DNA of 64,000 bases from Escherichia coli. Lineage in GTDB: Bacteria > Pseudomonadota > Gammaproteobacteria > Enterobacterales > Enterobacteriaceae. The DNA is taken from the NCBI RefSeq assembly GCF_003018255.1, contig NZ_CP027440.1. One strand, 5' to 3'. Of this stretch, positions 12,628 through 18,303 are shown piece by piece (within the stretch, counting starts at the first letter, position 1; each line of letters begins with the position of its first letter). The notes beneath the pieces are model-generated. The model was not told the origin of the DNA. It was given only the letters and a program-made list of their open reading frames with translations, and ran no database searches. The translations under genes and the position numbers were made by a program.

Positions 12628-12703
12628 TCCTCTGTAGTTCAGTCGGTAGAACGGCGGACTGTTAATCCGTATGTCACTGGTTCGAGTCCAGTCAGAGGAG
12701 CCA
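12628..12703 (+). tRNA. asnV: tRNA-Asn (GUU)
   Basis: Identical 76-nt tRNA-Asn sequence. Confidence 0.95.
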
Positions 12704-12758: not shown

Positions 12759-13694
12759 TTAAAACATCTGTCTTGAACCAGAACTAATTTGCACAGGCAT
12801 TCCCGATCGACGTTGCAACGCAGCATTTGCGCGATTCACATCAACTTCTTGCCCGTTGATAAACGCCCGCAAAGATGGGGTTACCGGCAATGGCACTTTT
12901 CGGTCAGACTCATATTCAGCACGATTGCGCGATAGCGGCTCATGAACTTCCAGCCACTTTGAACCATCCGGTTCCGTTGTGTATTTCACTGGCTGGTCGA
13001 TAATTTGCACACGAGTACCTACAGGAACATTATCAAACAGATATTTGATATCGTCATTGCGCAGACGAATACAGCCCTGACTTACCCGGAGCCCAATACC
13101 AAAATTGGCATTGGTACCGTGGATGGCATACAACCTGCCAATATAAATCGCGTACAGCCCCATGGGATTATCGGGCCCCGCAGGAACAAATGCGGGCAAA
13201 CTCTCCCCTCGTTTCGCATATTCGCGCCGGGTGTTCGGCGTTGGCGTCCAGGTTGGTGCTTCTTGTTTACGTTCAACGGTAGTCACCCAGTTACGCGGGG
13301 TTTCTCGCCCAGCCTGGCCGATACCAATAGGAAAGACTTCCACAGTATTACTGTCTGGTGGGTAGTAATAAAGACGCATCTCAGCGACGTTAACCACAAT
13401 CCCTTTACGAATAGTGGCGGGCAAAATCAGTTGCTGCGGAATGGTGAGTTGCGAGCCTGACTTCGGCAAGAAAACATCAGCGCCCGGATTCGCTTCCAGC
13501 ATGTTACTTAACCCTTGCCCGTATTGTGCGGCAAAAGTCTCCAGCGGCTGGGTATTGTGATCAGGAACAGTTACAGTAAGCGACTGTCCCACTAAACGGC
13601 TACCCTCTGGAGGTAATGGATAAGTTACCGCCAGGCTATTATGGCTGGCAAAAAGTAGAGCAAATGAGCAAAAAATATTTACACGACGCATCAT
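12759..13694 (-). CDS. ldtA: L,D-transpeptidase (YkuD domain)
   Basis: 311-aa protein with signal peptide and a catalytic region containing HGT...SQGCIRL, the YkuD active-site signature. Confidence 0.9.
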
Positions 13695-13755: not shown

Positions 13756-14835
13756 TTAACTGTTCAAATCAGAAGTCGTATTCCCCGGTAGAACAATATT
13801 ACTGGCAGCAAGTTCGCCCATGTTGTTGTATATCGCACAAGCAGCTTCGATGATGGGCATCGCCAGAGCTGCGCCACTCCCCTCACCTAAACGCATCTCC
13901 ATATTGAGATAAGGCTCCAGCCCCAAATGCGACAGCGCTATACGCGCCCCTTTTTCTGCCGACAGGTGAGAAGGAATGAGATACGGTTTGATTGCAGGAG
14001 ACATCTGGCAGGCTGCGAGCGCAGCAGCATAAGAAAGAAATCCATCCAGCAACACGGGTAAACCGCAGGACGCAGCGCCTAACATCACGCCAGCCATTCC
14101 GACCAAATCAAATCCACCCACTTTTGCCAGGACATCAACGCCATCCTGCGTATTTGGTTGATTCAACGTAATCGCCCGGCGCACAACATCAATTTTATTA
14201 GCCAGTTTATCTGTCGGCAGGTTTGCGCCAATCCCAACCACTTCTTCAGGAGCCCGACCAGTGATTGTGCTCACTATCGCCGCTGCCGGTGTCGTGTTTG
14301 CCATCCCCAATTCACCTACACCAAACAGCGTGACACCGTTTTTTGCCAGATCCCGCGTATAGCATATGACGTCCAAAAGCAACGTTTCAGCCTGACGGCG
14401 ACTCATTGCCGGAGCTGAAGCAATATTGTCGCTACCTCGTGCGACACGCATGTTGATAAGCCCGGGGATAGGCTCAGCAGTATCAATACCAACATCAATT
14501 ACGTGGACGCTAGCGCCCGCTTGTGCTGCCAGCACACACACGCCGGTTGTTCCGCGGGTCATATTTTCAGCCTGAATGGCTGTCACTTCTTTTGGGGAAA
14601 TAGCGACCCCTTCCTCCCAGACGCCGTGATCGGCACACATAACCAGTACCGCTTTTTTGCCCACATGCGGTATGCCATTCAACCCCGGCATTCCCGCCAG
14701 TTGTACGCCAAGCGCCTCCAGCCTTCCCAGGCTACCAACAGGTTTGAGTAACCCGTCAATATGCCGTTGTGCACGCGACATAGCGGCAGGATCGATGGCA
14801 GGGATCGTATTCAGTAAATTGGCAAGTGTTTGCAT
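13756..14835 (-). CDS. cobT: Nicotinate-nucleotide--dimethylbenzimidazole phosphoribosyltransferase
   Basis: 359-aa protein of the CobT family; last gene of the cobUST operon. Confidence 0.9.
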
Positions 14836-14846
14836 GTCACGTCTCT

Positions 14847-15590
14847 TTATAGCAGTGCCAGCAGGAAGACCAGTTCACCAAGCTCTATGGCTGCTCCCAG
14901 CGTATCGCCGGTTTGCCCGCCCAGCGTACGTTTGAGAAGCTGACCGAGGATGAAAATCGCCACCATCGTCACCACCATAGCAGCCACACCATGCATACCT
15001 GGCAATAATACAGCAGCAAAAATAGCGGCTAAACCGAGTGTGACGCAGGTTTGTCGCCCATCAATTTTGCCAATGAACACATTGCCAAGCCCTTCTTCCC
15101 GGGCATAACGATGACGATACATCAATAATGCGGCAGTCCCGCGGCTAACCGCGCATGCTGCCGCCAGCGATGCAAGGATCGGTTCGCCACGCAGAGCCAA
15201 TTCGCTTAACACCAGAATCTTTGCCAGTACAACAAAAATCAATGCCAGACCGCCGTGGGTGCCTAAACGGCTATCACGCATGATTTCCAACATGCGATCG
15301 CGGCTACGTGCAGAAAATACGCCATCACAGGTATCGGCGAGGCCGTCCAGGTGGAATCCCCCGGTCATCAGCGCCAGCACCAGCACGCTAAACAGTGCCG
15401 CCAGTGGTACGCCACACCATGCCTGCAGCACCATGAAGACCAGCCCGCTAATCGCGCCAAGCAATAAACCAATTAAAGGAAAAGTAATAATACCGCGAGA
15501 ATAATGCTCGAAATCCAATCCCTGGGACCAGCGACGCGGCACAGGCAGACGCGTAATAAAAGAGAGCATCGCCCAAAATAATTTACTCAT
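14847..15590 (-). CDS. cobS: Adenosylcobinamide-GDP ribazoletransferase (cobalamin synthase)
   Basis: 247-aa membrane protein from [18 protein letters not shown]; its start overlaps the cobU stop. Confidence 0.9.
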
Positions 15591-16132
15591 TTGATTTTTA
15601 CTCCAATACCCGAAACCACCAGCCACACTTCATTTGCCGCAGCGGCCAGCTGCTGATTTACCCGCCCGGCAATATCACGAAAATGTCGTGCCAGACGACT
15701 CTCCGGCACAATCCCCATTCCCACTTCGTTAGTCACTAATACAACCTTTGCGGGGCAACGTTGGCAGGCAGCAATCAACGACTGAATCTCAGCATTAATC
15801 GCCTGTTCCATCGCCTGATAATCCCATTCATCAGGGTCTTTATCTCCGCCATAATCAAACAACAGATTAGTCACCATTGTGGTAACGCATTCCAGCAACA
15901 CAGTTTCATGCGGGTTAATGTCTGCATGAATTAATTCATCAAGATGTTGCCAGCGCTCCACCGTGCGCCAGTGCGCCGGGCGGCCTTGCCGATGATGTTC
16001 TATCCGTGCAGCCATCTCATTATCAAGGATTTGAGAGGTGGCGATATACAGAACCTGTGAAGAGTCCCCAATAAGCGCCTCTGCGTGGCGACTCTTCCCG
16101 CTCCGTGCGCCCCCCGTCACCAAAATCATCAT
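15587..16132 (-). CDS. cobU: Adenosylcobinamide kinase / adenosylcobinamide-phosphate guanylyltransferase
   Basis: 181 aa from [18 protein letters not shown] (P-loop); the listed ORF has an upstream extension. Confidence 0.9.
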
Positions 16133-16264
16133 ACCGACTCCTGATTCAATTGTATGATGGTATTCATTGAACAGAACAATGGATCCCCACCGTTGCTGAC
16201 CGCAAAACATTTACGCGATTAATACTGCGCGTAATACAATTAAAAATCCAGCATTCTCAATCCA

Positions 16265-16771
16265 TTACGAAAGAAGATGGCATTGCGGGATAGCCAGACT
16301 TCCTCGTGTTAACGTACGACAAAATGCGTCATTGACAGCGGTTTCTCTGGAATGACAGATTTCATTCAGATAATGGATTAATGCTACAGCCCCACCAGCC
16401 GGACCAGTCAGCAAACGGGCATTGTGTTCTGCAATCACAATTACCGTCGTTCCTTCAGAATGAGCGAGCCATTCTGGTACGGATATCTCGCTTTCAGCTG
16501 CTATCAATAGCAGCACTGAATAATCGCCATACACATCTGATAACGATTGCACAGGCCCACCGTCAAGAGGCTGGAAATCTTGCTGCCAGTCCTCACCAAC
16601 AAAACAGGTTATTGGCAATATTTCAGCCAGATGTTTCGCCAGGTCCACATCTCCAGATAAGAGGCAAAAAAGAGCTATCGATTCGGGTTTTATCGTTTTC
16701 ATGCCTCTCGCCCTCCACTTAGTTTCCTGTAATGTCGGTCTGGTTGATGAGCCATGAAACAAGATTGCCAC
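16265..16771 (-). CDS. Hypothetical protein (168 codons, GTG start); possibly a decayed cbi remnant
   Basis: Sits where cbi genes would lie between the riboswitch leader and cobU. Two in-frame stop codons separate it from the in-frame upstream ORF 16817-17017. No family recognised. Confidence 0.3.
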   Translation of the reverse strand: MAILFHGSSTRPTLQETKWRARGMKTIKPESIALFCLLSGDVDLAKHLAEILPITCFVGEDWQQDFQPLDGGPVQSLSDVYGDYSVLLLIAAESEISVPEWLAHSEGTTVIVIAEHNARLLTGPAGGAVALIHYLNEICHSRETAVNDAFCRTLTRGSLAIPQCHLLS

Positions 16772-16930
16772 ACCTTAAGTGCAGCCCTGGTGCCTGTCGG
16801 CACTGCGATGAAAGAACTAAATGATGCCGCCATACCCTGATCCTTTCAGGGTGGTAGGGGTATAAAGACGCGCCTGTACTCTACTGGACGCTTCCGGGCA
16901 ACCCACTTCCCACCGAAGTTGTTGGTAATG

Positions 16931-17084
16931 ACTGACTGGCTGGTCTTCTGGCTTAGCGTCATCCTCTCCCGACCTTCCCAATCTCGCGATCAGTGGCATT
17001 TTCGGGTTTGTCAGCATTACAGCAGCGGGGGCTGCGAGGGATTTTCACCCTCTTCCCAGGCACAAATGTGCCACACCTGTCAGC
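16931..17084 (-). ncRNA. Cobalamin (AdoCbl) riboswitch-like leader element
   Basis: Minus-strand sequence contains AGGGTGAAAATCCC, GCAGCCCCCGCTGCTGTAATG, GCCACTG, GGGAAGG and a B12-box-like AAGCCAGAAGACCAGCC, with flanking CTGAC/GTCAG able to form P1; lies just downstream of pocR where the Salmonella cob leader lies. Confidence 0.65.
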
Positions 17085-17186
17085 GTATGTTATGAGCTGA
17101 TTTCACTTTTCCCATAACAGGTAAATAACGTTAATTATTCATTGCAGAGTTTATTTAAACCGTCCTCTTTTTTTGGGGCATTTACT

Positions 17187-18101
17187 CTATACCGTTTCCA
17201 TCGCCGCATTTTCATTCACTTGCTGTCGATACACCTGCGGCGTAACCTGATAAGTCTGACGGAAAACTTTGCAAAAATAACTGGTTTGCGAAAAACCTAA
17301 ATTACGCGCAATGCTGGCGATGCTCCAGTCACTATGGCACAGTAACTCACGAGCGCTGGCCATCCGTTGTTGGTTTACCCACGCATTAAACCCAATCCCA
17401 TGGTATTTCTTAAATAACTTGCTGAAATAATAAGGGCTTAGATAAACGTGCGAGGCGACATCTTCCAGACGCAAATCGTCTGATAAATGCGCATCAATAT
17501 AGCGTAAAGCTTTTTTCATTTTATTGTCGTGGGGACCAGGCGCACGAGTCTGGCGCACCGAATCTGACTGAAATTTGTTCTCTTTAATAACAACAAAATT
17601 GAGTTGTTTTTTGAGGCAATTTTCCACAATCAACTTCAACAAATCAGCAGAGGCCATAACTCTTGAGTAATCCATCTCTGGGACTTTGCGAAATTCATTA
17701 AGTAATTCGGGATCTGCCTGCCAGCAATCATCGACATTCAGAATATCGACCAAATCGACATCATCATTACGCAGACGAACTTGCCCGCACAATACAAAAC
17801 CAACTAAATGTCCGGCGATTACCAGTGGAATAGAGAAATCGGTTAATCCGGCATGACAGCGATAAATACAAGGCTGATCGGATTTAGAGGCTTCCAGGCC
17901 CCCACAACGATCGCTCATGCGACATCGAGTACTCAGCTGAGGGTGTTGCCGCATCATCTGACAAAATGGAGTGAAGTTAAACAGCTCGGAAATTTCATCG
18001 CCGTGAATATTGACCACGACAACCGCAAGGCTGGTCGCCTGCGCAAAATCCTGCGCGATTTTATTAATGAGTTCTGAATTAAGTGTCGCCGCAGAAATCA
18101 T
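17187..18101 (-). CDS. pocR: AraC-family transcriptional activator of the pdu/cob regulon
   Basis: 304-aa protein with a C-terminal AraC HTH domain and an N-terminus close to Salmonella PocR (MISAATLNSELINKIAQDFAQAT...). Confidence 0.9.
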   Translation of the reverse strand: MISAATLNSELINKIAQDFAQATSLAVVVVNIHGDEISELFNFTPFCQMMRQHPQLSTRCRMSDRCGGLEASKSDQPCIYRCHAGLTDFSIPLVIAGHLVGFVLCGQVRLRNDDVDLVDILNVDDCWQADPELLNEFRKVPEMDYSRVMASADLLKLIVENCLKKQLNFVVIKENKFQSDSVRQTRAPGPHDNKMKKALRYIDAHLSDDLRLEDVASHVYLSPYYFSKLFKKYHGIGFNAWVNQQRMASARELLCHSDWSIASIARNLGFSQTSYFCKVFRQTYQVTPQVYRQQVNENAAMETV

Positions 18102-18303
18102 GATAAAACCTCCCAGTTAATTTATTGTTATAGCAAAACAATTGTTTTACATTTAATCTTCACATCATCCTTGATGATTTACTGACGAGAAGCACAAAGG
18201 ACAATAACAAAAGCCTCCGTGAAGCGGGAGACTTTTTAATAAGTTCGGAAAGCAGATCACAAACAGTAAAAAAATAAACGTTTATAACTGCCAGATTATT
18301 TCG

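Follow-up and report, generated by a model that had tools for sequence, protein, structure and literature searches.

A probable truncated cbiG relic behind the cobalamin riboswitch at the cob locus of Escherichia

The window analysed here is a 64,000-nucleotide stretch of Escherichia coli contig NZ_CP027440.1 (assembly GCF_003018255.1), in which a small open reading frame (ORF) lies between a cobalamin riboswitch and cobU. Homology indicates that this main ORF is very probably the 5' third of cbiG (cbiG'), and it is preceded by a 44-codon upstream ORF (uORF) that represents a cbiA'::'cbiF fusion. Across the genus, purifying selection acts on codons 1-66 of cbiG', and both frames are kept open. 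Because the frames are open and these codons are selected, we regard the unit as a maintained, translated relic rather than as free-decaying DNA; we put the probability that cbiG' is a translated, selected relic at about 0.6, and the main ORF is probably still translated. The scar that contains it predates the splitting of the genus Escherichia, and allows a base-by-base reconstruction of how the genus lost de novo B12 synthesis, leaving the riboswitch, cbiA'::'cbiF, cbiG', 'cbiP and cobUST. The cob riboswitch and its leader were already known, as was a database name for the protein, albeit a generic one. A full-text search of the literature found no description of this riboswitch-uORF-cbiG' unit, and the review PMC8123684 contained nothing relevant to it.

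Relation of the ORF to cbiG

An initial annotation, made from the sequence alone, described an orphan 168-codon ORF on the minus strand (16265-16771) with a GTG start and an internal ATG at MKTIKPE. The frame and both codons were confirmed, the ATG being located at 16702. The ORF is not an orphan, because it matches the CbiG equivalog model and the exact protein is already present in NCBI and UniProt. The true start is ATG 16702, which gives a protein of 145 aa, and not GTG 16771. This ATG aligns with Met1 of CbiG, is the start of the coding sequence WP_000849050.1 called by the NCBI Prokaryotic Genome Annotation Pipeline (PGAP), and has a conserved Shine-Dalgarno sequence, GGAGG, 9-13 nt upstream. 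The exact 145-aa protein is found on 274 contigs, named "cobalamin biosynthesis protein" or "hypothetical protein". The GTG start is used in two database records (P0114, 168 aa).

A search of NCBIfam with the main ORF returned a single match, the CbiG equivalog NF004463 (cobalt-precorrin-5A hydrolase; E=6.5e-19), with ORF residues 1-118 aligned to positions 1-125 of the 351 in the profile and a score of 68.3 bits, which is below the equivalog cut-off of 546. Our own CbiG hidden Markov model, built from about 70 full-length enteric CbiG proteins, scored 75.8 bits (E=1.7e-24) between ORF residues 1-117/121 and CbiG residues 1 to approximately 124-129. Residues 1 to approximately 120 of the ORF are homologous to residues 1 to approximately 127 of enteric CbiG. 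The N-terminal alignment is colinear from Met1 (ORF MKTIKPESIALFCL..., CbiG MNTVKPESIALFCL...), and identity between the fragment and any intact CbiG is 42-46%. CbiG was the only family match in homology and profile searches of the ORF against the Cbi proteins. The main ORF had no Pfam or NCBIfam match to CbiA, and cbiP homology was confined to 16270-16133. The absence of the CbiA P-loop and of a glutamine amidotransferase signature, noted at the outset, was borne out by Pfam, which gave no genuine match.

In intact Citrobacter CbiG, Pfam assigns CbiG_N to residues 55-134 (E=1.4e-35), CbiG_mid to 140-217 and CbiG_C to 231-347. The ORF is cut just before the end of CbiG_N; homology ceases at approximately CbiG residues 124-129 and the stop codon follows 25 codons later, leaving a product that lacks both CbiG_mid and the CobE-like CbiG_C. 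The CbiG_N motifs that remain are decayed, with a 7-residue deletion and loss of RVLAPL...DPAVVVIDE...LLSGHxGGAN, where LLSGHxGGAN has become LLTGPAGGAV. Because CbiG_mid and CbiG_C are gone and the CbiG_N motifs are decayed, the product cannot be a cobalt-precorrin-5A hydrolase, and the remaining pathway is also gone. The operon placement of cbiG between cbiF and cbiH is lost as well: approximately 20-35 nt of weakly cbiF-like sequence lie upstream, there is no cbiH, and a cbiP 3' remnant and cobU lie downstream. We classified the ORF as a truncated cbiG relic because it is homologous to CbiG yet falls short of membership of the enzyme family. Searching PDB sequences with the ORF gave nothing below E=0.6.

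The riboswitch aptamer upstream of the ORF matches Rfam model RF00174 over its full length (positions 1-189; 107.5 bits against a gathering score of 31.5, E=1.3e-26), and its identity among Escherichia species, counting E. fergusonii, is 88-94%. The B12-box-like stretch AAGCCAGAAGACCAGCC at 16954-16938 lies 167 nt upstream of the GTG, in agreement with the approximately 170 nt first estimated. Positions 17084-16825 are 82-84% identical to the cob leader of Citrobacter and Salmonella, through the ribosome-binding site (RBS) hairpin and 8 nt into cbiA; leader identity is 90-94% within the genus and 92% to E. fergusonii. The RBS hairpin (ACCCUGA-AAGGA-UCAGGGU) has the Shine-Dalgarno sequence in its loop, and the ancestral cbiA ATG follows it immediately. 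This hairpin was read from the sequence and is conserved in all eight Escherichia sequences compared, and is not the predicted minimum free energy structure of the isolated fragment; the RNA fold of the platform and uORF together gave z=-0.42.

The first codon of the uORF is the ancestral cbiA start, ATG 16833 (ATGGCGGCA, encoding MAA as in Salmonella and Citrobacter cbiA). The main ORF had been placed where cbiA translation would start; this was incorrect, as the cbiA ATG lies in another frame, 62 nt upstream of the GTG. The main frame does continue into an upstream ORF at 16817-17017, from which it is separated by exactly two stop codons, as initially described (...GYGGII-stop-FFHRSADRHQGCT-stop-GVAILF...). 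The uORF holds a decayed P-loop (PTGTRAALKV, compared with GTGSGCGKTT) and closes in a cbiF-like HYRKL (compared with HYSKL in cbiF), and its TGA and the start codon of the main ORF overlap in an ATGA at 16702-16699. Both the 44-codon length and the ATGA overlap were found in nine in-genus genomes, whereas the E. fergusonii uORF has 49 codons and keeps a native cbiF/cbiG-type overlap of 20 nt. The cbiF 3' homology of the uORF is weak (E=0.0018 to 0.25), with E of about 0.2 in E. coli and 0.0018 in E. fergusonii. Variable columns of the uORF are spread over the three codon positions without a coding signature (21/16/22), so that only its openness and length appear to be kept. In one database protein (P0001, 188 aa) the uORF and cbiG' are read as a single product, an indel just before the ATGA junction having aligned the two frames.

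The tail of the ORF could not be traced to a cbi gene: for codons 121-142, nhmmer searches with Escherichia profiles against approximately 70 full operons gave nothing significant beyond cbiG nt ~400-410. Branch lengths in the tail are approximately twice those in the rest of the ORF, its dN/dS is 0.69 (not significantly different from neutrality), and the E. fergusonii ORF ends in a different tail. The last ~10 nt already lie within a cbiP remnant. This remnant fills the 132-nt gap to cobU (16133-16264, with cobU starting at 16132), whose length was confirmed, and the segment 16270-16133 runs colinear with the final ~140 nt of cbiP. Using 65 enteric cbiP 3' ends with the cobU start included as the profile, nhmmer gave colinear matches in six Escherichia sequences (E=6e-12 to 8e-22); a profile restricted to cbiP gave E=5e-5 to 0.014, the best shuffled score being -1.7. 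The spacer is 83-89% identical between the sequences and the ORF tail 68-72%. The earlier suggestion of a decayed or chimeric cbi remnant was right in kind and wrong in its particulars: the source is cbiG codons 1 to ~127 in frame plus approximately 25 untraceable codons and not CbiA or CbiP. A mechanically called cobU ORF extends to ATG 16210 (207 aa), while homology and PGAP place the start at 16132 (181 aa); the 26 additional codons (16133-16210, minus strand) fall within the cbiP remnant.

Selection on the reading frame and its distribution

Ratios of nonsynonymous to synonymous substitution rates (dN/dS) for the ORF, estimated by the Nei-Gojobori method, were 0.36-0.61 between in-genus species and 0.22-0.34 against E. 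fergusonii, compared with 0.13-0.18 for cobU, 0.01-0.06 for cobS and 0.08-0.24 for cobT (0.01-0.24 for the neighbours overall). Likelihood-ratio tests under the GY94 codon model gave an omega of 0.52 for the whole ORF (p=2e-6), 0.29 for codons 1-66 (p=3e-8), and, for codons 1-120, 0.46 in the genus and 0.33 against E. fergusonii (p=3e-5). Variable columns in codons 1-66 number 17, 15 and 27 of 66 at the first, second and third codon positions. Between E. coli and E. fergusonii, nucleotide identity is 88% in the aptamer, 92% in the platform, 73% in codons 1-66 and 44%, a random level, in the uORF interior; synonymous sites of pocR and pduF are saturated over the same distance. An antisense ORF of 113 codons (16381-16722, plus strand) was rejected as a coding frame: the sites that vary most, which are third positions in the minus-strand frame, fall on its second codon positions.

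No stop codon was found in the ORF across 11 lineages. In neutral simulations run on the ORF's own tree, the probability that all copies remain open was 0.0003 for the whole ORF in ten taxa and 0.0002 for six loci found irrespective of ORF integrity. The corresponding values were 0.004-0.02 for codons 67-145 and a marginal 0.04-0.055 for the uORF. The indels follow a similar pattern, with one in-genus event of 3 nt in the 566 nt of the two ORFs versus four (1, 1, 6 and 11 nt) in the 132-nt spacer (Fisher p=0.005), three of the latter four not being multiples of three. Together with the intact and conserved riboswitch and platform, and the coupling to a riboswitch-controlled start, the purifying selection lends some support to the other original suggestion, that of a small gene under riboswitch control.

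The ORF is present at 144-145 aa in seven further Escherichia lineages and at 156 aa in E. fergusonii. The 44-codon uORF, the ATGA overlap and the 144-145-aa ORF occur together in E. coli, E. whittamii, E. marmotae, E. ruysiae, E. albertii and Escherichia sp. E4736, and in two GTDB species representatives labelled E. coli (L007 and L009). Every in-genus locus spanning the region has the order pduF-pocR-riboswitch-ORF-cobUST-ldtA, E. albertii with cobU decayed and cobT absent; in Citrobacter and Salmonella the corresponding place is occupied by the full cbiA-P operon. In E. albertii the ORF and uORF are intact although cobU is decayed and cobT gone. The E. albertii cobU pseudogene (L088 6436-7900, and L008) is represented by tblastn fragments of 61-67% identity with internal losses; cobS is intact (247 aa, dN/dS 0.02) but has an unusually high synonymous rate (dS) of 1.28 against E. 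coli.

In E. fergusonii cobUST has been removed by a deletion that begins in the ORF tail and reaches the cobT stop; the place is filled by approximately 240 nt that include a palindrome resembling repetitive extragenic palindromic (REP) elements (GCCGGATAAAGC...GTATCCGGC). Values of dS for pduF, pocR and ldtA between E. fergusonii (L004 7581-10700 and 11691-20471) and E. coli are 1.6 to >2.7, saturated and like those of a different genus, which suggests that the region is an ancient or imported allele throughout. A glycyl-radical-enzyme microcompartment locus lies just past ldtA in this species. Outside Escherichia and Shigella, no stand-alone N-terminal form was found among 1.84 billion protein representatives; the search returned only Escherichia/Shigella fragments and intact or broken enteric CbiG. 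Escherichia sp. MOD1-EC7003 (L035) has a full-length-type cbiG and a pocR 85% identical to that of E. coli, and is probably not Escherichia sensu stricto. A metagenome-assembled genome labelled Citrobacter sp. (L005) has pduF, pocR and ORF 95-99% identical to E. coli and is likely mislabelled or contaminated. In Citrobacter amalonaticus AUH_CA_2023_1 (L011 10001-10606) the cbiG frame ends after 202 codons where 351 are usual, which may reflect a recent pseudogene or a sequencing error.

Within E. coli, the whole unit was found in 644 of 5426 complete genomes. Approximately 3150 complete genomes, K-12 included, retain only the last 172 nt of the ORF, beside insertion sequence (IS) or prophage remnants, and in another group the remnant is joined to a pduV remnant. 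The curated annotation of K-12 MG1655 has no feature over the 172-nt remnant. Shortened or internally deleted forms of the ORF also exist, of 96 aa in Shigella dysenteriae and of 95, 113 and 136 aa elsewhere.

Several observations weigh against a translated and selected relic. In approximately 88% of complete E. coli genomes, among them K-12, the riboswitch is missing along with the 5' two-thirds of the ORF while cobUST remains, and since most E. coli lack the unit any function of cbiG' is dispensable. The GY94 tests used four in-genus pairs that are not strictly independent, and omega in codons 67-93 (0.83), codons 94-120 (0.67) and the tail (0.69) is not distinguishable from 1. Some loci came from protein databases, where intact ORFs are over-represented, although the unbiased subset still gave P=0.0002. 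A Pfam scan of the ORF returned nothing at E<=10 except a spurious Nup96 match and did not recognise CbiG_N (PF11760). An AlphaFold2 model of only moderate confidence (predicted local distance difference test, pLDDT, 74) showed an alpha/beta core and a long C-terminal helix, with residues 136-145 below pLDDT 50, but its multiple sequence alignment was dominated by real CbiG; a Foldseek search of the model against PDB gave generic Rossmann-like matches (E>=0.012), with no CbiG structure and no significant neighbour. Scanning for promoter and terminator consensus sequences gave no promoter-like sites and a single weak terminator-like hairpin, at chance level, within the uORF; no rut-like stretch, C-rich and G-poor, that could serve Rho polarity was found.

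We considered whether the ORF is purely a neutral relic, a dead cbiG fragment whose open frame and apparent constraint reflect slow decay, ascertainment or chance. In favour of this, it lacks two of the three CbiG domains and has lost the CbiG_N motifs, the protein changes 3-10 times faster than its neighbours (69-73% versus 87-99% amino-acid identity), codons 67-145 are near-neutral, most E. coli have deleted the ORF, and shortened forms are known. We nevertheless think this unlikely. Omega is below 1 both in the genus and against E. fergusonii, the simulated probability of all copies remaining open is 0.0002, and the sole in-genus ORF indel is a multiple of three next to a spacer with indels of 1, 1 and 11 nt. 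Moreover, codons 1-66 retain their 73% nucleotide identity to E. fergusonii where the uORF interior has fallen to 44%.

The constraint could instead act on DNA or RNA, through internal cobU promoters or an extended riboswitch regulatory sequence. The E. coli cob operon is reported by Lawrence and Roth (1995) to have several promoters. Also in favour of constraint on DNA or RNA, the 132-nt spacer is more conserved than the ORF tail, and K-12-type strains retain exactly the last 172 nt of the ORF together with the spacer. Such constraint would depress dS and dN equally, whereas dN/dS in codons 1-66 is 0.29 and third positions are the most variable; it also leaves the frame-preserving indels and the absence of stops unexplained, and the consensus scan gave it no promoter-like sites. 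We consider it improbable. Derivation from cbiA or cbiP, in or out of frame, is suggested by position alone, the ORF lying between riboswitch and cobU where these genes sit in intact operons, and is refuted for codons 1-120: CbiG, aligned from residue 1, is the sole family match; what is left of the cbiA start and P-loop belongs to the separate uORF, whose frame is different; cbiP homology does not begin until the last codons of the ORF and fills the 132-nt gap; and tblastx against full operons found no other cbi match within the ORF.

Proposed history, function and locus layout

Two deletions in an ancestral pdu-cbi-cob locus account for the scar. The first began at cbiA codon ~22-30 and stopped ~20-35 nt short of the cbiF 3' end, leaving the open 44-codon fusion uORF; the second began at cbiG codon ~127 and stopped ~140 nt short of the cbiP 3' end. 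In Salmonella, the B12 riboswitch of the cob leader is reported by Ravnum and Andersson to exert translational control of cbiA through the RBS hairpin. By analogy, the hairpin at the old cbiA start would open at low adenosylcobalamin, allowing the uORF to be translated; ribosomes ending on the TGA of the ATGA may then re-initiate on cbiG'. At high B12 both the uORF and cbiG' would be left untranslated.

A dead-pathway fragment that is open, coupled and partly constrained behind a conserved riboswitch implies either that regulatory wiring has been preserved through the wreckage or that a domain fragment has been domesticated. We can offer two roles for the translated relic, each of them tentative. 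In the first, the unit might be a translated conduit that relays translational control by the riboswitch to the downstream cob genes. A relay would account for frames that stay open while their sequence is near-neutral, but not for the omega of 0.29 in codons 1-66 or for retention in E. fergusonii, and no rut-like composition backs it. In the second, cbiG' might encode a small protein with a non-catalytic function of the CbiG N-terminal subdomain, which would explain both the omega of 0.29 and the retention in E. fergusonii.

One possible form of residual protein function, which we put forward as speculation, is that cbiG' is a domesticated gene fragment encoding a B12-repressed small protein of 144-156 aa, with a non-catalytic function of its own that is independent of cobUST. 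This function may reside in the conserved N-terminal alpha/beta subdomain, residues 1-66 plus the ARLLxGPAGGAVALIHYLNE helix, and may be to bind incomplete corrinoids or to act as a partner in cobinamide salvage or Pdu cofactor supply. Domestication would explain the survival of the riboswitch-uORF-cbiG' unit over a time roughly equal to that since E. coli and Salmonella split, in E. fergusonii even without cobUST.

The features of the locus are listed in the table below; all genes close to the main ORF are on the minus strand. The closest complete genome, E. coli CFSAN018748, is 99.8% identical over 16265-16840.

Table 1. Features of the pocR-cob region in the window.
Feature	Position	Strand	Comment
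ldtA	12759-13694	minus	
cobT	13756-14835	minus	
cobS	14847-15590	minus	
cobU	15587-16132	minus	first intact gene 3' of the scar
'cbiP remnant	16133-16270	minus	decayed last ~140 nt of cbiP; nhmmer homology
main ORF tail	16265-16342	minus	codons 121-145 and TAA stop (16267-16265)
cbiG'	16343-16702	minus	codons 1-120 of the main ORF, corresponding to CbiG residues 1 to ~127
44-codon uORF	16699-16833	minus	cbiA'::'cbiF fusion
expression platform	16834-16920	minus	includes RBS hairpin 16852-16834
cobalamin riboswitch aptamer	16921-17095	minus	Rfam RF00174; B12 box ~16954-16938
pocR	17187-18101	minus	pduF beyond, then the pdu operon on the plus strand

Elsewhere in the window, the intergenic region between pocR and pduF contains a full-length Rfam match to the enterobacterial small RNA STnc230 (RF02075, 76.3 bits) at 18162-18245 on the plus strand, opposite to both genes. 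Two tRNA genes at 10219-10291 and 12628-12700 (plus strand) have equal scores of 72.6 bits each; by synteny with K-12, where asnV adjoins ldtA, both are tRNA-Asn copies, and they flank the genes upstream of ldtA.

For annotation, the main ORF should be recorded as a truncated cbiG relic starting at the ATG, and the 44-codon uORF, missing from genome annotations, deserves recognition. The wider effect is limited, as most E. coli have lost the unit and knowledge of B12 salvage is unchanged.

Comparison with known systems

The closest known counterpart of the main ORF is CbiG of Salmonella, Citrobacter and Klebsiella, with which it shares the N-terminal ~120 residues, the position after the 3' end of cbiF, the strand and the pdu/pocR-cob neighbourhood. 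It differs in comprising only about one third of the protein, at a locus where no other cbi genes are present. The leader can likewise be compared with the Salmonella cob leader: aptamer, leader and RBS hairpin are 82-84% identical up to the cbiA ATG, and the start and first three codons (MAA) are the same. There, however, the controlled cistron is a 459-codon cbiA heading a 17-kb operon of 20 genes, while here it is the 44-codon cbiA'::'cbiF coupled to cbiG'.

Riboswitch leader ORFs are known to relay translational control through Rho-dependent polarity, as in the btuB, thiM and mgtA leaders of E. coli. The present unit is predicted to resemble these in having a translational riboswitch followed by translated ORFs upstream of biosynthetic or salvage genes. 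It differs in that the translated part consists of 190 codons of gene wreckage, is without rut-like composition, and persists in E. fergusonii without cob genes. For the protein itself, CobE of the aerobic pathway, which is equivalent to the CbiG C-terminal domain, corresponds to the opposite end of CbiG but sets a precedent in B12 clusters for a single CbiG domain encoded as a small stand-alone protein.

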